DNA of 38,224 bases from a virus (IMGVR_UViG_2541047899_000010:1-38224), one strand, 5' to 3'; positions 5,145-37,375 are shown, counted from the first letter of the stretch. Notes: generated by a model not told the origin, from the sequence alone. Program-made: numbers and translations.

Positions 5145-5266
5145 GAAACCAGAACATGCACACACAAAAAAACCGCTTGCCATGCCGCAATCGGTCAGGT
5201 TACATTTCCGCTGCACCTCATAAAACGGGTGCCGGGATTCTCAACCCGATACAGAGCAAAGCGCAT

Positions 5267-5290
5267 AACCGCGCCAGCGGTTTTTTTGTG
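5267..5290 (+). terminator. Candidate intrinsic terminator inside the early-operon non-coding gap
   Basis: aaccgc-gcca-gcggtt hairpin followed by ttttttt. Confidence 0.45.
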
Positions 5291-5299
5291 CGTACTGTA

Positions 5300-5328
5300 T
5301 TGCCACGTCTTTTTCGCGTCAGAATTAT
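5300..5328 (+). promoter_or_regulatory. Candidate sigma70-like promoter downstream of the internal terminator
   Basis: ttgcca, 17-bp spacer, aattat. The -10 is weak. Confidence 0.3.
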
Positions 5329-5466
5329 GGCGGGGCGTACGGGGCCGACTTCGGTCGGGCCGGATTCTTTGCTCTCCGGTGTTGAGAACCCTGTACGTCT
5401 CGCCACCCCGAGATTCTCAACTCTGGATGGTGAGCTATTTCTATCACCGAGCAAAGAGGCCACACC

Positions 5467-5697
5467 ATGGCAAACCGCAAACAACAGCGCGCATACGCTG
5501 CGCGTCGTCACATCCAGACTGAAATCAACCGCAGACTTTCCCGCGCATCACGCGTCGCGCAAATCATGCACATCAATATGCTGCATGAGCGCAGCCACGC
5601 ACTATCAAACATTTATTCCGCCTCTGTTTTCAGCTATCTGGCGGATGATCTGCACGAGCTTCAACAGCTCATCCAGCAGCAAAACAAACTCCATTAA
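5467..5697 (+). CDS. Hypothetical early protein
   Basis: 76-aa ORF with AGAGG upstream of the ATG. Confidence 0.45.
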   Translation: MANRKQQRAYAARRHIQTEINRRLSRASRVAQIMHINMLHERSHALSNIYSASVFSYLADDLHELQQLIQQQNKLH

Positions 5698-5769: not shown

Positions 5770-6159
5770 ATGATTGACGCTCATGACTTCACAAGATGGG
5801 TGCGCACACAGGACACCCGTCTGGCTCCCGTTCTTCAGGGATTATTTGATCTCTACATCCGTGGTCGTGACAACAGAGCACGCACCACAAAACCAGAGAA
5901 TGCAGACACCCTTTATTTCACAGTAGACGACTGCTACCGCGTGGACTTCACACCACACGGGCTGGCGTTGCACTGCCTGACACCACACGGCGAATCACTA
6001 CTGGCGTATTACGACTCCCCGGCCTCCGTATTTGCGGCAATGCTGGCGCATCGCACTGCTGGCGGGTGTGCCTCGCTGAGTGAATACACCGCTGAATTTA
6101 ACCGCCTTTCCACCCTCTTCTCGCAGGAGTGGCAGCGCGTGACGGGATACCAGCCATGA
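5770..6159 (+). CDS. Hypothetical early protein, translationally coupled to gene A
   Basis: 129 aa; its stop overlaps the gene A start (ATGA at 6156). Confidence 0.5.
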   Translation: MIDAHDFTRWVRTQDTRLAPVLQGLFDLYIRGRDNRARTTKPENADTLYFTVDDCYRVDFTPHGLALHCLTPHGESLLAYYDSPASVFAAMLAHRTAGGCASLSEYTAEFNRLSTLFSQEWQRVTGYQP

Positions 6160-8996
6160 GTGAGTTTGCATGGAGCTGGAATGAACCACGGCCAGCCATT
6201 GATCCAGCCAGATTTACGGAGCACAGGCAGGAAACTGAAACCGACCTGCAACGCGCCATCCGTTACTACCTTGAGGCGGACAAAAGGGCACAGAAAGAAC
6301 AGGAAGCGAAGGAAGAAGCCTTTTTCGCACAATCCGCCATGGGTAAAAAACTCATGGCATCCCTTGAGGAAGCCGGACAGCGTGAAAAGCTGGCACAGAG
6401 CATCATCAGTAAGCGCCGGGCAACAGAACAAGACCCGGTAGCCCGTGCCTTTGCCACACTGAAGGCGCTTCCCGTTTATCTGCGAGAACCTCTGAGCCGC
6501 CACCTCTCTTTCCTGCGCAAGAAGCAGGAAGCCGATCGTCAGAAAGGCAAAAAGAGCTGGCAGGCGGAACGCTATGCACGCGGAACCCTGCGCAAAATAT
6601 TCGAACGTCTGGACCGCACCGACAGCCGCTGGCTGACACCGGGTTATCGCTCCCTTGCCGGACGCGAACGCCTGGACGATTTACTTTACCTGCCGCAGCT
6701 CAACAAACACCAGATACAGACGCTGGCCACCATGACGGCGGCGATGTTCAGCAGCACCTTCGAAAAACTCTGCGATGGCTTTGGCGCGACTGATGGCGAA
6801 CTGACCATGGATGTAACGCTGAAGGCGTATCAGATGCTGGCCCGCATGGCGTTACACCTGCACGCCATGCCTCCACATTATGACGCACTGACAACAGACA
6901 AAGACCGGAGGAACGAACCGGACACGGAGCTGCTGCCGGGCGCAATCCTTCGCCTGACTTGTGCGGAATGGTGGAAACGCAAACTGTGGCTGTTACGTTG
7001 CGAGTGGAGAGAAGAACAACTCCGCGCCGCCTGTCTGGTTTCCAGAAAAACATCACCCTATCTGAGCCAGGACGCGTTAAGCGAGTTTCGCGCACAGCGC
7101 GAGAAAACACGCGATTTCCTGAAAAGTTTCATGCTGGAAAATGAAGACGGGTTCACGATTGATCTCGAGACGGTGTATTACGCGGGAGTAAGTAACCCGG
7201 TTCACCGTAAGGCAGAAATGATGTCCACCATGAAGGGACTGGAACTTCTGGCCGAAGCCCGTGGCGACAGAGCGGTGTTTCTGACTGTCACCTGCCCGTC
7301 AAAATACCACGCAACAACGGAGAACGGTCATCCGAACCCCAAATGGAACGGGGCCACCATGCGCGACTCCAGCGATTACCTGGTTAACACGTTTTTTGCG
7401 GCGGTCCGCAAAAAACTGAACCGCGACGGTCTGCGTTGGTATGGCATCCGCACGGTGGAGCCTCACCATGACGGCACTGTGCACTGGCATATGATGGTCT
7501 TTGCACATCCGGACGAGATTGAAACCATCGTGTCCCACGTCTGCGATATTGCCATTCAGGAAGACCGCCACGAGCTGGGCGATGACATAACTCCGCGTTT
7601 TAAGGCAGAGTACGTAGACGGCTCAAAAGGCACACCAACCAGCTACATCGCCACCTACATCGGAAAGAACCTGGACAGCCGCGCCGTGGATGGCATCGAC
7701 CCGAAAACGGGCAAGCCACGCGTTGACCACGAAACCGGAAAATCAATGGCCGAGAGCGTGGAACGCGCCATCGGCTGGGCGCGCCTTCACCGGGTCCGCC
7801 AGTTCCAGTTCTTTGGTATCCCCTCCCGTCAGGTGTGGCGTGAACTGCGCCGCCTTGCCAGCCAGATGGCACGCAACCCGGAAGGCCCGCAACGGCTGAA
7901 GGATGACGCAATGGACGCGGTACTCGCTGCCGCTGATGCCGGATGTTTTGCCACCTACATTGAGAAACAGGGTGGCGTACTTGTTCCACGCAAAGACTAC
8001 CTGATTCGCACCGCCTACGACCTCGCAGATGAGCTGAACGATTACGGTGAACAGAGCGTACAGATTTACGGGATCTGGTCGCCGCTCATTGGGGAGTCTT
8101 CCCGCGTATGCACGCATCCGGATAACTGGAAGCTGGTAAGACGCAAACCGGAAGCGGAAGACAGCGCCCGCGAAAATGGTTTTGACCTTCAGGGCGGCCC
8201 TGCCGCCCCTTGGACTCGTGGCAATAACTGTCCCCGTGTACAGGAAACGGACAACAACGGGACAGAACAGCCGGAAGAACGGCCAGCACCGTGGCCGCAG
8301 CTCCCTGACGGCGTTGAAGTGAACGAATGGATGCGCTCACTGAAACGGCACGAACGCCGGGCGCTGATGCGTTCGCTTCGTGACAAACAGGCAAAAAACA
8401 GCAGTGATGAAATGCAGAGCTGGACACAGAGCCGCAAACAGCAGCGGCCTTTGCCTGATAACCACGAATTACTCGCTAAAGAATGGCGGGAGTCTGCTGA
8501 ATCTCTCGGCCTGCATATCGGTGAACAACAGATGCAGCACCTGTTACGGGGCGGCAGTCTGTACGTTGACGGCAGCATCATTGCACCGCAGGGATTTGAA
8601 ATTGTACGCAAACCGGATACCCGCCCGGACAGCCGAATCACGCAGCTCTGGCAGCGCCTGAGCCGTAATCACGGCGTAAGCAGCACGGAGATCCGCCATA
8701 ACCCGGTCGCCAGCTATCTGGCACAGCTGGGGGCATCAGACCCTGAAGCCGCCGCACGCCTGGCATCCACACTTCAGCAGGACCAGAACACCATGAAAAC
8801 CCCCGTTACCGTGCTTTCTGACATGCTGCGCGCCATCCGCGACGCAGAGCACGCACAGAGAATCAGTGAAACCACTGAACGCGCCCGCCGCAAAGCAGAC
8901 CTGCTGCGGAGTGGCCTGACCAGTGGAAACAAAAAACAGACAGAAACGGGACTCACGAATCCCGTAAATGAGCAAAAAACGCGCCGCGATATATGA
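6156..8996 (+). CDS. A: Rolling-circle replication initiator and nicking endonuclease (P2 gpA-like)
   Basis: 946 aa from ATG at 6156. Rep motifs HWHMMVF (HUH-type) and YIATYIGKN (catalytic Tyr), recalled as conserved in P2 A and the phiX174 A family. Longer than P2 A at the C-terminus. Confidence 0.9.
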   Translation: MSEFAWSWNEPRPAIDPARFTEHRQETETDLQRAIRYYLEADKRAQKEQEAKEEAFFAQSAMGKKLMASLEEAGQREKLAQSIISKRRATEQDPVARAFATLKALPVYLREPLSRHLSFLRKKQEADRQKGKKSWQAERYARGTLRKIFERLDRTDSRWLTPGYRSLAGRERLDDLLYLPQLNKHQIQTLATMTAAMFSSTFEKLCDGFGATDGELTMDVTLKAYQMLARMALHLHAMPPHYDALTTDKDRRNEPDTELLPGAILRLTCAEWWKRKLWLLRCEWREEQLRAACLVSRKTSPYLSQDALSEFRAQREKTRDFLKSFMLENEDGFTIDLETVYYAGVSNPVHRKAEMMSTMKGLELLAEARGDRAVFLTVTCPSKYHATTENGHPNPKWNGATMRDSSDYLVNTFFAAVRKKLNRDGLRWYGIRTVEPHHDGTVHWHMMVFAHPDEIETIVSHVCDIAIQEDRHELGDDITPRFKAEYVDGSKGTPTSYIATYIGKNLDSRAVDGIDPKTGKPRVDHETGKSMAESVERAIGWARLHRVRQFQFFGIPSRQVWRELRRLASQMARNPEGPQRLKDDAMDAVLAAADAGCFATYIEKQGGVLVPRKDYLIRTAYDLADELNDYGEQSVQIYGIWSPLIGESSRVCTHPDNWKLVRRKPEAEDSARENGFDLQGGPAAPWTRGNNCPRVQETDNNGTEQPEERPAPWPQLPDGVEVNEWMRSLKRHERRALMRSLRDKQAKNSSDEMQSWTQSRKQQRPLPDNHELLAKEWRESAESLGLHIGEQQMQHLLRGGSLYVDGSIIAPQGFEIVRKPDTRPDSRITQLWQRLSRNHGVSSTEIRHNPVASYLAQLGASDPEAAARLASTLQQDQNTMKTPVTVLSDMLRAIRDAEHAQRISETTERARRKADLLRSGLTSGNKKQTETGLTNPVNEQKTRRDI

Positions 8997-9041
8997 AGCG
9001 CACACAAAACAGGCAAAAGCGGGATTTCAGAATCCCGTAAA
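8947..9041. repeat. Two copies of a 22-bp hairpin motif flanking the gene A stop, upstream of parM-like
   Basis: cgggactcacgaatcccgtaaa at 8947..8968 and cgggatttcagaatcccgtaaa at 9020..9041; each has a cggga/tcccg inverted repeat. Candidate parC-like centromere, operator or gpA-associated site. Confidence 0.5.
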
Positions 9042-9072
9042 CGATTAATTAATCAACATAAGGAAAATCGAC

Positions 9073-10032
9073 ATGAAAATTTGTATCGACGACGGCTCCA
9101 CCAACATCAAGCTGGCATGGACTGAGAACGGCGAACGCCGCAACGCCATCAGCCCGAACAGCTTCAAGTCGGAATGGTCTGCGCCGTTCGGTGGCACGCA
9201 GCCCGCGAACTACATGCTTGATGGCGTGCGCTATGGTTTTGATCCGGTCAGCGATCGCTTTGTCCAGACGACCGACACGCAATACCAATACAGCGATGTG
9301 AATGTCATTGCCATTCATCACGCGCTGGTCAAATCAGGCATCACGCCACAGGAGGTGGATGTGGTTGTCACCCTGCCACTGAGCGAGTATTTCGACACAA
9401 ACGCACAGCCGGACATGGCCAACATCAACCGCAAAAAAGCGAACGTTATGCGCCCGGTGGAGTACCAGAACGGCGAAGCATTCACTATCCGTAACGTGCG
9501 GGTTATGCCTGAATCCATTCCGGCTGGCTTTAAGGCACTGGCTGACATGAGTCCGTTTGAATCCCTGCTGATTGTGGATTTGGGCGGAACCACGCTGGAT
9601 GTGGCAAAGGTTCAGGGGCAACTGGCAGGTATCAGCCAGGTGTTTTGCGATCCACACGTAGGCGTTTCTCTGATGGCCGATGCCGTACTGTCGGTGATGG
9701 CCACTAACGGTATGCGCACCAGTCACCACATCGCCAATACCATTATCGAACATCGCCATGATGAAGCCTGGCTGCGCCAGCACATCCACAATGACGCGCA
9801 TTACGACAGCCTGATGGCGGTTATTCGTGAAAAGGAAGAAACACTGAAACAACGAGTGATCCGCGCGCTGGCGGGTTTTTCGGGTTACGGGCGGGTGATG
9901 GTTGTCGGTGGAGGGGCGGAGATTGTGGCACCCGCTATCCGCGAAGCCTGCGGAGTTAATGCGACTTTCATCGCGGACGGGGTGCCACAGTTTGCTCTGG
10001 TCAATGGTTTGTACGCAATGGACAAGGAGTAA
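9073..10032 (+). CDS. parM: ParM/StbA-family actin-like segregation ATPase
   Basis: 319 aa. N-terminus MKICIDDGSTNIKLAW and later YSDVNVIAIHHAL, VDLGGTT and VVGGGA motifs recalled as matching plasmid R1 ParM (actin fold). AAGGAAAA upstream of the ATG. Confidence 0.8.
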   Translation: MKICIDDGSTNIKLAWTENGERRNAISPNSFKSEWSAPFGGTQPANYMLDGVRYGFDPVSDRFVQTTDTQYQYSDVNVIAIHHALVKSGITPQEVDVVVTLPLSEYFDTNAQPDMANINRKKANVMRPVEYQNGEAFTIRNVRVMPESIPAGFKALADMSPFESLLIVDLGGTTLDVAKVQGQLAGISQVFCDPHVGVSLMADAVLSVMATNGMRTSHHIANTIIEHRHDEAWLRQHIHNDAHYDSLMAVIREKEETLKQRVIRALAGFSGYGRVMVVGGGAEIVAPAIREACGVNATFIADGVPQFALVNGLYAMDKE

Positions 10033-10036
10033 ACCA

Positions 10037-10348
10037 ATGACGACACCAACCAGACGGATAAGTTTCTATCTGAAGCCCGCCGCCGTCAAGAACGAAGGCG
10101 AAGCATGCGCCTGGCTGGACAGCCTTACACCAGAAGCCCGCAAAAGCGGCCAACGCGTGGCTTTTCTGGCCGGGCTGGCACTTCTGAAAATGAATCCGGC
10201 AGAGGCTTACCGACTGGCTGCATGGGCTGACGATGAGGCGTTATCAGTGACACAAACCAGGGCAGAACGCCACATGTTACAGACAGCCCCCACCGCACAG
10301 ATAACCAGTCAGATGGCCGGAAATATCCGGGCGTTATTTCCCGATTAG
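10037..10348 (+). CDS. parR: ParR-like adaptor (putative ribbon-helix-helix centromere-binding protein)
   Basis: 103 aa; ATG 7 nt after AAGGAG and 4 nt after the parM stop. The N-terminal RISFYLKP beta-strand pattern resembles R1 ParR (recalled). Confidence 0.55.
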   Translation: MTTPTRRISFYLKPAAVKNEGEACAWLDSLTPEARKSGQRVAFLAGLALLKMNPAEAYRLAAWADDEALSVTQTRAERHMLQTAPTAQITSQMAGNIRALFPD

Positions 10349-10417
10349 AACTTTGCACGGGAGGTTTCCAGTTCTGAAAACAATCAACAAATAAGGAGTC
10401 GAACGTCAAAGATATAA

Positions 10418-10445
10418 GGCCGCCTAGCTGGCGGTCTTGTGTCTT
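10418..10445. terminator. Bidirectional hairpin terminator between convergent parMR and ATPase/Toprim operons
   Basis: ggccgcc-tagc-tggcggtc hairpin with T-rich flanks on both strands. Confidence 0.45.
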
Positions 10446-10478
10446 AAAATATGTTTATCTTAATGAGGACTATTATTT

Positions 10479-10997
10479 TTATAAAAAATAATCATCATGA
10501 GAGGAAACATGAAAATTATAATCTCTCAATTGGGGGATAATCCCTCTACTCCAAAGCAACGTTTTATTTAGTCCAAGTCCATCTAATTTCATCATCCTGT
10601 TGCGCAGCGCAATGAATTCATTCTTGAAGTTATCTGCAGAGATGATCTTTGGGCAAAAACAAGAATACAACTTTCTATTACTTACACCACAAGCATTGGC
10701 AAGCTCATCCTCAAAATTGCTTGTTTGTTGAAATAGGTGGATTGTGTGTTTTTTCGCCTTTAATAGATTGAGATTATTCTTAAATCTATCAAGATTCTCA
10801 ATCCTATCCGTATCAAAAACCACTATGATTTCGCTATTTTCGGTTAATGCTGGCATGTATTTATTTATATTAACATTCCATAAATTAGCAATTACTATTT
10901 TCTTAATAGGATAGCCTAGCAATGTTTTGAAATCCTGAAACAATGCTTTTTCCGTATCTCCCTCAACAAGAATAATAGCAAATTTCTTAACTGCCAT
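10479..10997 (-). CDS. Small Toprim-like protein (DUF4276/RloB-like), putative nuclease partner of the ATPase
   Basis: 172 aa from ATG at 10997, 2 nt after the ATPase stop and preceded by GAGGA. N-terminal ILVEGDTE (conserved Glu) and VVFDTDR (DxD) fit a Toprim-like fold. Locus is markedly AT-rich. Confidence 0.6.
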   Translation of the reverse strand: MAVKKFAIILVEGDTEKALFQDFKTLLGYPIKKIVIANLWNVNINKYMPALTENSEIIVVFDTDRIENLDRFKNNLNLLKAKKHTIHLFQQTSNFEDELANACGVSNRKLYSCFCPKIISADNFKNEFIALRNRMMKLDGLGLNKTLLWSRGIIPQLRDYNFHVSSHDDYFL

Positions 10998-10999
10998 AA

Positions 11000-12199
11000 T
11001 CAATCCTCAAATAGCATCTCTTCGATTAATGAAACGTCAGGTATTGTAGCAAAACAGTCATTTTTTACTTTATTTAAAAGATTGCGATCATTCTTTTTAT
11101 GATGTGTGGTAGCTTCAACAAAAGTGGTTACACCATCTACTTTTTTAGTAAAAGTATATGAATGCGTAGGCAGATCTAAGCTCAAGATATCATAATTATG
11201 TGTGGTGTATATAAATTGACCATATCTGCAAAGCTTAGATATAATCAGCGTGACCATCATTTTTTCTAATTCAGTATGAGTGAAGGCCATTTTCTCATCC
11301 AAAAAGTACACCCCACTGCAAGGGAAATTGAACTCTCGCTCTTCTATTTTATCTTCAAGCACTCCTGACAGGAGATGGGATATTTTTACTGCCTCATAAG
11401 TACCACGAGACAGTCTATCTTTATTTGTTATATCACCTTCCATATCAATAATAACTCTATCTCCATTATTGAAGACTACTGAATAACCCTGCAAATCCTC
11501 CTTTCCCTCATCATCTTTAAGAGTGAGTCCTGAGACAGATTTAACAGTATTGTCAAAGGTTTTTAATATGCTATTAAGCACATTCTTCTTAATTCGTGAT
11601 ATTTTATCCGTGTTCTCTTGGTTTTCAGATAGAATGAAATGCCAACCAAGAACAAAGTCCAAATCCTCTAAATATTGGGAAAATTCTTTTGAGTTAGCGT
11701 TTTCGGTTGAAAAAAATCTATTTTGACCATTTAATTCAAACTTTTGCGCATCCCACACAGCATCCAATCTTTTGGTCGTCTTTGCGCATGATTCCGAGCT
11801 TCTTAAATCAACAGATGCCATTGCAATTTTTTCTACAGCAACAGACTCATCCATAGCCCTAAGCCAGACACCTGCCCTAAACAAACATTTTAAATGACTC
11901 TGGAAAAAGTCAACCTCTATATATGCAGGTTTTCTTTTGTCAGTAATTTTTAACGGTTCTGGATTGAAAACACCACTACTGAGAAAACGCAACACAGAAA
12001 GCATCACGCGACCAAGAGATGTTTTACCAGATGCATTAGCACCAGAAACGATGCAAACCTTTTTGAAGTAGAACTTTTCAAATCCATCAATGTACTCACC
12101 TTCCAGTGAGCTGTTGATCGGGGGTCTGGAGAAGCTTAAGTCAAGGATGCTATTTTCAAAGCAAAACAGATTATCGATTCTGATTTTTGTAAAAGCCAT
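11000..12199 (-). CDS. ABC-type ATPase (AAA_15/AAA_21-like) of a candidate anti-phage module
   Basis: 399 aa. Walker A GANASGKTS, Walker B VYFLDE, H-loop TTHN, with a long helical insert between A and B as in OLD, AriA and AbiL-type ATPases. AAGGTGG upstream of the ATG. AT-rich. Confidence 0.75.
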   Translation of the reverse strand: MAFTKIRIDNLFCFENSILDLSFSRPPINSSLEGEYIDGFEKFYFKKVCIVSGANASGKTSLGRVMLSVLRFLSSGVFNPEPLKITDKRKPAYIEVDFFQSHLKCLFRAGVWLRAMDESVAVEKIAMASVDLRSSESCAKTTKRLDAVWDAQKFELNGQNRFFSTENANSKEFSQYLEDLDFVLGWHFILSENQENTDKISRIKKNVLNSILKTFDNTVKSVSGLTLKDDEGKEDLQGYSVVFNNGDRVIIDMEGDITNKDRLSRGTYEAVKISHLLSGVLEDKIEEREFNFPCSGVYFLDEKMAFTHTELEKMMVTLIISKLCRYGQFIYTTHNYDILSLDLPTHSYTFTKKVDGVTTFVEATTHHKKNDRNLLNKVKNDCFATIPDVSLIEEMLFED

Positions 12200-35791: not shown

Positions 35792-37375
35792 ATGGCAAGT
35801 AAAGCTAACCTTGTTAATTTGGATGCGATGATTTCAAGAGAGGATTTCTCTGCTCAATCCGATAATGATTTATCTTTCGAATCTATACAAAATATAGCTA
35901 TGAGAGATATCGGAATGTTGTCTGGCCTACTCAGAAAACCAGATTTTCAGAGAGAAACAAATCACTGGACTCCAGAGCAAGTAGTTTCATTACTAAAGAG
36001 TTTTGTCACAGGTGATTTAATACCATCCGTGATTTTATGGAAGAGTTCTTTTGTGTTTGTTATAGACGGTGGTCATAGACTTAGTGTTTTAAGAGCATGG
36101 AAAGAAAATGACTATGGTGATGGCACTATATCGCAAAAATTCTTTGGAAATAGTATTTCCGGAGAGCAAAGAAAGATCGCACAAAAAACAAGAGAATTGG
36201 TTGACTCCACAGTTGGTAAATGGTCTGAGATAGAAAGAAAAATGCAGGATTCTAATAATGACCATGATGAGAGTAGAAGGCTTACAAATATTTACGTAAG
36301 GGCTTTGCAAGTCCAGTGGGTTAAAGGTGATTCCGATAAGGCAGAAACGTCTTTTTTCAATATAAATAAAAAAGGTACTCCTTTAGATGAGGTTGAGGAA
36401 ACTTTACTTAGGCATAGGAAGAAACCTATATCTATCGCTGCGAGAGCAATAATACGAGCAGGAAAAGGACATAGATACTGGTCCTCTTTCCCTGAGGATA
36501 AGACTAAAAAGATAGAAGAGCTTTCCTCAAATATAAACTCCTCTCTTTTCGATCCAGACGTTAAATCTCAAATTAAAACACTCGATCTACCTCTGGGTGG
36601 CTCACGCGGTGTGAGGTTAGCTCTTGATATCTTAATAGATCTTATGTCTATTTCCGTGTCCCAGAGCGAAAATTATCAAAAAGAATTGCTTAATCAAATC
36701 GAAGATTCAGATGGAAGCGAAACTGTTGTTGTTCTGGAAAAAACCGCAAAATTACTAAATTGGATTACTGGAAATGACAAGGGCAGCTTAGGATTACATC
36801 CGGCCGTGTATTTTTATAGTGCATCAGGCAGACATGTGAATCCTATGTTTTTAGGGACGACTCTGTTTATAGCGAAAAAATTAAAATTTAATGATAAGAA
36901 CTTCTTCAAAAAATTCACAAGTATTAGGTTTAATTTAGAGAAAACTCTAATAAACAATAAGTCTATGCTAGCATCGTTAGTGAACAGAGCAGGACATAAG
37001 AAAAGAACTGAGTATTACTCTAATTTATTTGAGTCAATGATTGATTTCCTTCTTGAGGTAAAAAAGAAAGACAAAAGCATGAGTGATTTCAGCCTTACAG
37101 AAAGTGAAATACTCCAGCTTGCTCACTTTGAAGGTAATATCCTATCTGGGACAAGTATCAGCAATGCAACTAAAATTAGTGAGGAAGCGAAGAATGCTGT
37201 ATTCATTGATACTGCATTAGCTTCAGCAATTACATGTCCTATCTGCCAGGGATATTTAGATCCTTCAAAATCTGTCTCATATGATCACATCAAAAGAGTT
37301 GCAGATGGTGGTAAAGGTTCGGCAAAAAATACTCAGTTAACTCACCCGTATTGCAATATGTCTGTCAAAAATTAG
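35792..37375 (+). CDS. GmrSD/DUF262-DUF1524-like protein: N-terminal ParB-like NTPase domain fused to C-terminal HNH nuclease (candidate type IV restriction or defence enzyme)
   Basis: 527 aa in an AT-rich island. N-terminal DUF262 hallmarks (PDFQRE...W then VIDGGHR, equivalent to the DGQQR motif). C-terminal His-Me finger (CPICQGY...DHIKRVADGG...NTQLTHPYCN). Confidence 0.7.
   Translation: MASKANLVNLDAMISREDFSAQSDNDLSFESIQNIAMRDIGMLSGLLRKPDFQRETNHWTPEQVVSLLKSFVTGDLIPSVILWKSSFVFVIDGGHRLSVLRAWKENDYGDGTISQKFFGNSISGEQRKIAQKTRELVDSTVGKWSEIERKMQDSNNDHDESRRLTNIYVRALQVQWVKGDSDKAETSFFNINKKGTPLDEVEETLLRHRKKPISIAARAIIRAGKGHRYWSSFPEDKTKKIEELSSNINSSLFDPDVKSQIKTLDLPLGGSRGVRLALDILIDLMSISVSQSENYQKELLNQIEDSDGSETVVVLEKTAKLLNWITGNDKGSLGLHPAVYFYSASGRHVNPMFLGTTLFIAKKLKFNDKNFFKKFTSIRFNLEKTLINNKSMLASLVNRAGHKKRTEYYSNLFESMIDFLLEVKKKDKSMSDFSLTESEILQLAHFEGNILSGTSISNATKISEEAKNAVFIDTALASAITCPICQGYLDPSKSVSYDHIKRVADGGKGSAKNTQLTHPYCNMSVKN

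Follow-up and report, generated by a model that had tools for sequence, protein, structure and literature searches.

A ParM-ParR actin-like partition module with a two-site centromere candidate in the replication region of P88-like prophages

The locus

The stretch of viral DNA IMGVR_UViG_2541047899_000010:1-38224, which is 38,224 nucleotides long and is referred to here as the window, carries a pair of genes, parM and parR, that encode an actin-like partition module. The window was identified as an E. coli prophage of the P88-like type (Xuanwuvirus, Peduoviridae; P2-like), and the region shares 94-97.5% identity with P88 and related phages. Gene A (6129..8996, plus strand), which encodes a replication endonuclease of 955 residues (Pfam Phage_GPA, expectation value (E) 2.9e-129; phrog_91, 'nicking at origin of replication'), is followed on the same strand by parM (9073-10032), encoding an actin-like ATPase of 319 residues, and by parR (10037-10348), encoding a protein of 103 residues that belongs to the stbB family. 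Two repeats lie upstream of parM. An initial annotation had described the locus as an R1-type ParM/ParR module with upstream hairpin repeats inside an integrase-bearing P2-like prophage, and suggested that the element may persist as an episome or that the module is cargo. The description of the prophage was correct, as the integrase gene was annotated at 1121-2263 on the minus strand and the full P2-like gene set is present in the window.

The existence of the module was already known, since the genes are annotated in GenBank, RefSeq and PHROGs and were noted by Rousset et al. 2022 (PMC9122126), who proposed a function in plasmid maintenance in one line. The records of P88 relatives already label the two genes 'plasmid segregation protein ParM' and 'partition protein'. 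A search of the accessible literature, which included a 2026 survey of P2-like virus diversity, found no paper that tested the function of the module. The phage-specific ParM clade, the constant, non-cargo status of the module, the conserved two-site centromere candidate and the missing promoter appear to be undescribed so far.

ParM

The ParM sequence, with the N-terminus MKICIDDGSTNIKLAW, matched both ParM Pfam domains, StbA_N (E 1.8e-82) and the ParM C-terminal domain (E 1e-68), and the PHROG family 'partition protein', while the score for the ALP_N family, 25.7 bits, was under the cut-off of 26.3. Residues 2-316 align over the full length with R1 ParM (PDB 1mwk) with an E value of 1.3e-92, confirming that the protein is a ParM/StbA homologue. 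The nucleotide-binding and hydrolysis motifs, phosphate 1 (DDGSTNIK), the region of the catalytic Glu (MPESIPAG), phosphate 2 (DLGGTTLD) and adenosine (GGGAE), are all intact, match R1 ParM residue by residue and are invariant across nine phage ParMs. The initial annotation had made the assignment depend on the ParM fold and the ATPase motifs; the motifs are in place, and the fold was settled without structure prediction by the identity to the solved R1 ParM structure.

The gene is under purifying selection. Among ten copies, the ratio of nonsynonymous to synonymous substitution rates (dN/dS) was 0.08 for parM, compared to 0.14 for the C-terminal part of gene A and about 0.3 for parR. The nucleotide diversity (pi) of parM in 82 copies was 0.0055 at codon positions 1 and 2 and 0.052 at position 3, and an internal stop was found in only one of 86 copies.

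ParR

The start codon of parR is located 4 nt past the parM stop. The small protein had been described as ParR-like, and its match to PF10784 (Plasmid_stab_B, E 2.4e-24) places it in the R1-type family; it also matched phrog_2515, 'partition protein'. ParR consists of an N-terminal strand (RRISFYLKP) and helix (QRxAFLAGLAL), a hypervariable linker at approximately residues 64-93 and a C-terminal tail. The N-terminal part is predicted by family to be the DNA-binding domain, and the invariant residues that it has in common with R1 StbB are R6, F10, L12, P14, R40, A45, G46 and L49. The tail, N-I-(R/Q)-A-(L/F)-F-P-(E/D), resembled the R1 tail KKNAMKLIN in an alignment, with N96 and L100 common to both. 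In the 2012 work of Gayathri and colleagues (PDB 4a62), the R1 ParR tail is reported to be the peptide that binds ParM.

A profile built from 21 homologues gave as its best match in the PDB the 'StbB protein' 2jd3, a weak similarity that covered residues 8-74 with an E value of 0.005. The AlphaFold2 model of the ParR monomer, made from the same 21-sequence alignment, was of low confidence (mean predicted local distance difference test score, pLDDT, 58) and left the N-terminal strand unmodelled; a Foldseek search of the PDB with this model returned chance-level matches, none below E 4.5. A ribbon-helix-helix fold of the N-terminal domain is therefore predicted from sequence and family membership.

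Several ParR alleles, about 50% identical overall, occur in near-identical prophages whose ParMs are 98-99% identical. The first 63 and the last 8 residues are conserved across the alleles while the linker of about 30 residues is hypervariable, and the DNA homology between the allele types ends in the middle of the gene, near window position 10182. However variable the linker, every phage ParR allele keeps the C-terminal tail motif N-I/A-x-x-L/F-F-P-E/D. The alleles also have in common the DNA-contacting strand and the putative centromere, parC, and since the strand and parC are identical, the alleles define no specificity groups. In the Serratia and Enterobacter phages the sequence of the ParR strand is RKISFYLKP, not RRISFYLKP.

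The upstream repeats

The motif CGGGA-N8-TCCCGTAAA was found at 8947-8968 and 9020-9041, a start-to-start distance of 73 bp, and the pattern CGGGA-N6-9-TCCCGTAAA occurred exactly twice in the window and in none of 100 shuffled sequences. The initial annotation had given the coordinates and the number of these 22-bp motifs correctly; the repeated unit, however, is 43 nt long, and copy 1 is not intergenic. A repeat finder placed the two units, 79% identical and 73 bp apart, at 8929-8971 and 9002-9044, each of them comprising an A-rich tract, a palindrome and a TAAA flank. Unit 1 lies inside the coding sequence of gene A (stop codon, 8994-8996), with its palindrome, CGGGACT-CACG-AATCCCG at 8947-8964, in the last 17 or so codons, while unit 2, with the palindrome CGGGATT-TCAG-AATCCCG at 9020-9037, is intergenic. 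No further full site is present anywhere in the window.

Across 82 related prophages, both copies have the consensus CGGGATT-N4-AATCCCG, in which two 7-bp arms form a perfect inverted repeat. The nucleotide diversity in these sequences was 0.039 in the palindrome arms, 0.178 in the 4-bp centers and 0.051 at other intergenic positions. The A-parM intergenic region as a whole showed no extra constraint within E. coli (pairwise diversity 0.061, compared to a parM dS of 0.062), and only the contrast between the arms and the centers stands out.

Paired sites of the form YGGG-N10-CCCR, 72-73 bp or about seven helical turns apart, were found in the phages of three genera, at -126 and -53 from the parM ATG in Escherichia, at -132 and -60 in Plesiomonas and at -129 and -56 in Hafnia. 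The DNA between and around the sites has diverged among the three genera, with the position and spacing of the sites kept. The background frequency of YGGG-N10-CCCR is 0.1-0.4 per kb, and the pair was absent upstream of parM in 22 of 22 non-phage loci. It was also absent upstream of parM in the Serratia/Enterobacter sub-clade, where the phages have instead an inverted repeat of 14-20 bp, GAAATAGAAAAATG / CATTTTTCTATTTC, with 26-28 nt between the arms (7887-7940 in locus L007 and 7883-7950 in locus L008).

The two E. coli copies fold better than shuffled sequences (z -2.7 and -5.7). The Plesiomonas and Hafnia equivalents fold at -1 to -3.2 kcal/mol, like shuffles, and keep only the outer GGG/CCC and the fixed 10-bp spacing. 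As hairpin stability is not conserved in these genera, the earlier view of the repeats as hairpins is weakened, and the conserved feature is a spaced sequence rather than a structure. No Rfam match to hairpins was found in 8800-9150 at E values up to 1. The elements are probably protein sites in double-stranded DNA, and the conserved position and spacing, together with the absence of the pair from the non-phage loci, support the earlier suggestion that the two repeats represent parC; judged on sequence, they are the best centromere candidate of the module.

Two other observations were made on the repeats in this region. The TTCTAT core of the Serratia/Enterobacter inverted repeat resembles the TTCTCT iterons of the plasmid-type relatives. 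A phasing of the A-rich tracts (CAAAAAAC, CAGAAAC, CGTAAAT and others) in 11-bp steps, like that of the R1 iterons, could not be distinguished from base composition and was set aside as an idea only.

Expression signals

The parM gene starts 76 nt past the gene A stop, and no terminator-like site was found on the plus strand between the two genes. A promoter scan of 8700-10700 gave no sigma-70 match of at least 9 of 12. In nine phage loci, the best sigma-70 score in the 200 nt upstream of parM was 7-8.5 of 12, compared to 8-11.5 in 22 loci of plasmid-type relatives, about three quarters of which scored at least 9.5, mostly at approximately -90 to -130 from the ATG. By this measure the phage loci are without the consensus sigma-70 promoter that the plasmid-type relatives carry upstream of parM. 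The lack of a consensus promoter of its own, the short gap and the absence of a terminator indicate that parMR is most likely co-transcribed with gene A, and would be expressed mainly in this way.

A short element on the plus strand, ATTAATTAATCAA (9044..9056), recurs as a conserved ATTAATCAA some 20 nt ahead of parM in Escherichia, Plesiomonas and Hafnia. It may function in the leader or as a weak -10 element; its diversity was 0.029, compared to 0.051 at other intergenic positions. The Shine-Dalgarno-like sequence AAGGAAAA (9060..9067, plus strand) is located 5 nt before the parM ATG. A GC-rich hairpin (10418..10436) after parR, between the module and the convergent defense genes, coincides with a minus-strand terminator-like site (10434-10420); on the plus strand the T-tract that follows this stem is weaker, and transcription of the unit probably ends at the hairpin.

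The strongest early promoter match, Pe, was found at 2468-2497, before cox and opposite the C-type repressor. Between Pe and gene A, on the plus strand, are the Hfq-binding small RNA isrK (5213-5287; Rfam 62.8 bits, cut-off 50), the C4 antisense RNA (5323-5410; Rfam 78.5 bits, cut-off 45) and, directly downstream of these, a 76-residue open reading frame (ORF) for a 'derepression protein' (5467-5697). The isrK match ends in a terminator-like hairpin (5267-5282) that is followed by a run of seven T residues. Judging from these matches, the region looks like a P1/P7 immI-style antirepressor control module in the P2-like early region ahead of gene A. A search for the consensus LexA box CTGT-N8-ACAG, as a sign of SOS control of gene A and parMR, gave a single match, located inside gene A and at chance frequency.

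Descent of the phage module

The protein database showed a gap in ParM identity, with the P88-type proteins at 92-99% and the next relatives at 54-63%. The genomic context of the next relatives was read in four cases, in Plesiomonas, Hafnia, Serratia and Enterobacter, and all four are P2-like prophages with the gene order GPA, ParM, Plasmid_stab_B, variable genes, portal and terminase. In a context scan with one genome per species, all of the ParMs of at least 53.6% identity were encoded directly after the GPA gene in a P2-like prophage, and all of those at or below 52% had no GPA gene upstream. The A-parM-parR synteny was thereby found in six genera, Escherichia, Salmonella, Plesiomonas, Hafnia, Serratia and Enterobacter, leaving out a probably contaminated Vagococcus record. 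A scan of IMG/VR gave 80 loci, all of the P88 type at 99-100% and with no further lineages, and was used for population variation only.

In a neighbor-joining tree the phage-borne ParMs formed one clade (bootstrap 84) nested among plasmid-type ParMs, including that of R1, with an Escherichia/Plesiomonas/Hafnia sub-clade at a bootstrap of 100. The tree fits a single old capture of the cassette followed by vertical descent in P2-like phages.

Two additional records were encountered in the course of these comparisons. The 44-kb plasmid unnamed1 of Apirhabdus apintestini has a split or truncated ParM-like ORF that is 62% identical over 135 residues, much as in the nearest phage relatives. GPA genes are absent within 4 kb of this ORF, which may represent a plasmid-borne relative of the phage ParM clade. 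A contig of Vagococcus sp. WN89Y, which bears a Gram-positive label, contains a P88-like prophage region of the E. coli type that is 98% identical, most likely as a result of assembly contamination or mislabeling.

Prevalence and genomic context

The parM-parR module was present in 1308 of 5426 complete E. coli genomes, or about one quarter, while parM alone was found in 1303 and the parC region in 1304. The carrier strains include O157:H7, O104:H4 and ST131. All but two of the 1456 module copies are on chromosomes, and integrase is present in every copy examined. P88 itself is a mitomycin-inducible phage that forms plaques (PMC5285337). A single circular 'plasmid' record of the module was found, NZ_CP148288.1, a complete P88-like genome of 34,461 bp that includes the integrase and was deposited under the name pZ1323PEC0009-2 as a plasmid of E. 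coli. The record may represent either a genuine episome or an excised circle captured by assembly; a look for the chromosome of the same strain in the E. coli genome collection found no entry. Among copies with the integrase type of this record, 311 of 311 are chromosomal. The episomal persistence that had been suggested thus finds no support as a regular state of the element.

The gene A type of the window was found in approximately 1385 genomes at an identity of at least 90%, and in 1320 with a match that covered at least 80% of the query; the comparison with the 1303-1308 module genomes puts the retention of the module at about 97-99% among carriers of this gene A type. When the interval between gene A and Q was compared among related prophages, as the initial annotation had proposed, the A-parM-parR block was constant and only the genes after parR varied from strain to strain, such as an AbiL-like pair (in the window), an insertion sequence (IS) element, an AAA ATPase together with an S8 peptidase, or ead/Ea22 genes. 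This places the module on the constant flank of the A/Q hotspot, outside of its cargo. Together with the retention and the vertical descent in the phage ParM clade, this contradicts the suggestion that the module is cargo. Neither ParM nor ParR had a match in PADLOC. Hotspot cargo, a defense system and a decaying remnant were rejected as descriptions of the module on the basis of its retention, PADLOC and dN/dS.

Several observations concern individual prophages and neighboring genes. In O157:H7 strain 4276 the element IS1203 cuts the prophage directly after parR and is followed by a tail fiber assembly gene, so that what is left is a prophage remnant, in which gene A, parM and parR are still annotated as intact. 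A mosaic phage of Escherichia albertii NBRC 107761 has a gene A and parM 89-99% identical to those of the window with a portal and large terminase that are only 30-40% identical, which indicates that the A-parMR block moves among different P2-like late-gene modules. The hotspot of the window holds a two-gene defense candidate, convergent with the module, at 10479-11003 and 11000-12199, both on the minus strand. One protein of this pair is an AAA_15 ATPase (PADLOC AbiLi, 3.3e-27, and weakly AriA) and its partner is a small TOPRIM protein of the OLD type, which matches AbiLii and the TOPRIM region of GajA. At the right end of the prophage, just past gpD, a gene at 35792-37375 on the plus strand encodes a 527-residue GmrSD_N and HNH protein that resembles type IV restriction enzymes.

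Proposed function

The interpretation that we favor, at a level of confidence about midway between doubt and conviction, is that the module is a working ParMRC machine, expressed with gene A, whose substrate is the extrachromosomal phage circle present after infection or induction. The cassette would be a type II (ParMRC, R1-type) DNA segregation machine that was captured once by an ancestor of this P2-like lineage and is now fixed in the replication region. We infer from the features described above that ParR binds the upstream sites and that parMR is transcribed with gene A, and likewise the time and purpose of its action. ParR dimers would bind to the two palindromic sites, 73 bp or about seven helical turns apart, that straddle the end of gene A. 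The conserved ParR tail would then capture the ends of ATP-ParM filaments, and the growing filaments would push the ParR-bound DNA molecules apart. Co-transcription with gene A would imply that a repressed, integrated prophage does not express the module, which would be active only on the extrachromosomal circle after infection or induction. Replicating phage circles could in this way be separated or positioned while they are extrachromosomal, and the benefit may be better replication and packaging, or a copy in both daughter cells before integration, in neither case requiring a permanent plasmid prophage. The actin system of the CGP3 prophage provides a published precedent that supports such a function (PMC4446434).

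Several observations weigh against this interpretation. The centromere candidate, with two palindromes, differs from R1 parC with its ten direct iterons, and within E. coli the palindrome arms are barely less variable than neutral sites (0.039 compared to 0.051). A weak promoter overlapping site 2 (ATTAAT, 9044-9053) is possible, and isrK and C4, with the terminator-like hairpin, lie between Pe and gene A, so that the exact transcription unit is uncertain. Most P2-like phages, among them P2 and 186, do without such a system, and any benefit must therefore be accessory. The circular 34.5-kb copy that was deposited as a plasmid fits the alternative considered next.

This alternative is that the module maintains a plasmid prophage, allowing the phage to persist at low copy number, for example in cells whose attachment site is lacking or already taken, with a function like that in R1. 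The family is a bona fide plasmid partition family, the complete circular genome pZ1323PEC0009-2 is on record as a plasmid, and the idea has already been suggested in print (PMC9122126). We nevertheless regard it as unlikely. The copies are chromosomal with two exceptions, without exception for the integrase type of the circular record, and all of those examined keep their integrase; the lone circular record could be an excised, replicating circle from an induced culture. In addition, the autoregulated promoter of plasmid parMR operons is missing, and replication relies on a P2-type A endonuclease. P2-type A replication is rolling-circle and cis-acting, and involves no copy-controlled plasmid replicon.

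It is less probable still that the target of the module is other DNA in the lysogen, through partition incompatibility, through exclusion of related phages or plasmids with a matching centromere, or in the handling of the host chromosome. The module does adjoin a defense hotspot, with the AbiL-like pair immediately downstream, and the several ParR alleles with their hypervariable linker have a diversity of the kind known from conflict genes. However, it is situated on the constant rather than the variable side of the hotspot, neither protein was matched in PADLOC, the ParR alleles do not differ in the DNA-contacting strand or in parC, and no promoter of its own that would provide for expression in the lysogen was detectable.

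An equally improbable explanation, which concerns the repeats, is that they are RNA or transcription elements, either stem-loops in the A-parM mRNA that govern its processing or translation, or minus-strand terminators against antisense transcription from the hotspot. Both repeats were scored as terminator-like on the minus strand, with a stem and a T-rich tail. The E. coli copies fold better than shuffles, the stems are conserved while the loops vary, and the common CCCG-to-CCTG variant would keep a G-U pair. On the other hand, the better folding does not extend to the Plesiomonas and Hafnia equivalents, Rfam gave no match, no U-tract follows the stems on the sense strand, and a better terminator is already present directly 3' of parR. 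Finally, it is very improbable that the module is what is left of a plasmid cassette, decaying or neutral and with no current function, even though P2-like phages without it are fully viable, given the low dN/dS of parM (and, at about 0.3, of parR), the single internal stop among the parM copies, the near-complete retention with this gene A type, and the same synteny in six genera at 54-63% protein identity.

To return to the action of the module on extrachromosomal circles, a more specific proposal, which we put forward only tentatively, is that one whole clade of P2-like phages made a plasmid partition cassette part of its replication program. The cassette, now promoterless, would be co-transcribed with the rolling-circle initiator A, would have a centromere reduced to two sites and overlapping the 3' end of gene A, and would move or space replicating circles in the short time that they are extrachromosomal. 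The module would then be an enterobacterial counterpart of CGP3 AlpAC that is silent in about one quarter of E. coli chromosomes. About one quarter of the sequenced E. coli strains hold an actin-like segregation machine in an integrated prophage, under strong purifying selection. If it is active in the extrachromosomal phase, the module would offer a tractable E. coli model of cytoskeleton-assisted positioning of a phage genome, as well as a naturally minimal, two-site ParR centromere with which to study the capping of ParM filaments by ParR-DNA. If carriage as a plasmid were true instead, it would constitute a second, unrecognized mode of lysogeny for P2-like phages.

Comparison with known systems

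The module resembles the ParMRC system of R1/NR1 (parA/stb) in the order centromere, parM, parR, in the full-length ParM match with all of the nucleotide-binding motifs, and in a ParR of the same Pfam family. The two differ in the centromere, since R1 parC, as read from an IncF plasmid, consists of two sets of five A/C-rich 11-bp direct iterons that flank the promoter, whereas the phage has two palindromic sites, one of which is inside gene A. An autoregulated sigma-70 promoter is embedded in R1 parC, while no consensus promoter was found in the phage loci, and the R1 replicon is a low-copy plasmid, in contrast to the integrating P2-like phage. On sequence grounds the module is a phage-adapted form of ParMRC, with proteins that fit the R1 family and a centromere architecture, promoter and location that do not. 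The ParR of pB171 (2jd3) has, by a weak profile match, an N-terminal DNA-binding domain of the same family. The centromeres of pB171 are arrays of many short repeats.

Partition cassettes of the cytoskeletal type are also found in other tailed temperate phages, the phage-plasmids, such as the P1-like D6, which has a StbA-type ParM that is 47.8% identical to that of the window, and the Clostridium phage c-st, which has TubZRC. The phage-plasmids P1, N15, D6 and c-st are maintained as plasmids by plasmid replicons, whereas the P88-like elements have an integrase and a P2-type gene A and are more than 99% chromosomal.

A further parallel is CGP3 of Corynebacterium glutamicum, an integrated prophage with the actin-like protein AlpC, the adaptor AlpA and, upstream of the operon, the alpS repeats to which the adaptor binds (Donovan et al. 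2015, PMC4446434). Induction of the alpAC genes follows soon after excision, efficient replication of the phage DNA depends on them, and their loss halves the phage DNA copy number (PMC4446434). CGP3 differs from the module described here in its Gram-positive host and unrelated phage type, in having a motor of the AlpC family instead of a true ParM, and in its gene order, with the adaptor first (alpA, then alpC) rather than the motor. Both systems nevertheless combine an integrated prophage, an actin-like ATPase, a DNA adaptor and upstream repeats, and by analogy the role proposed for the P88 module would be the same.

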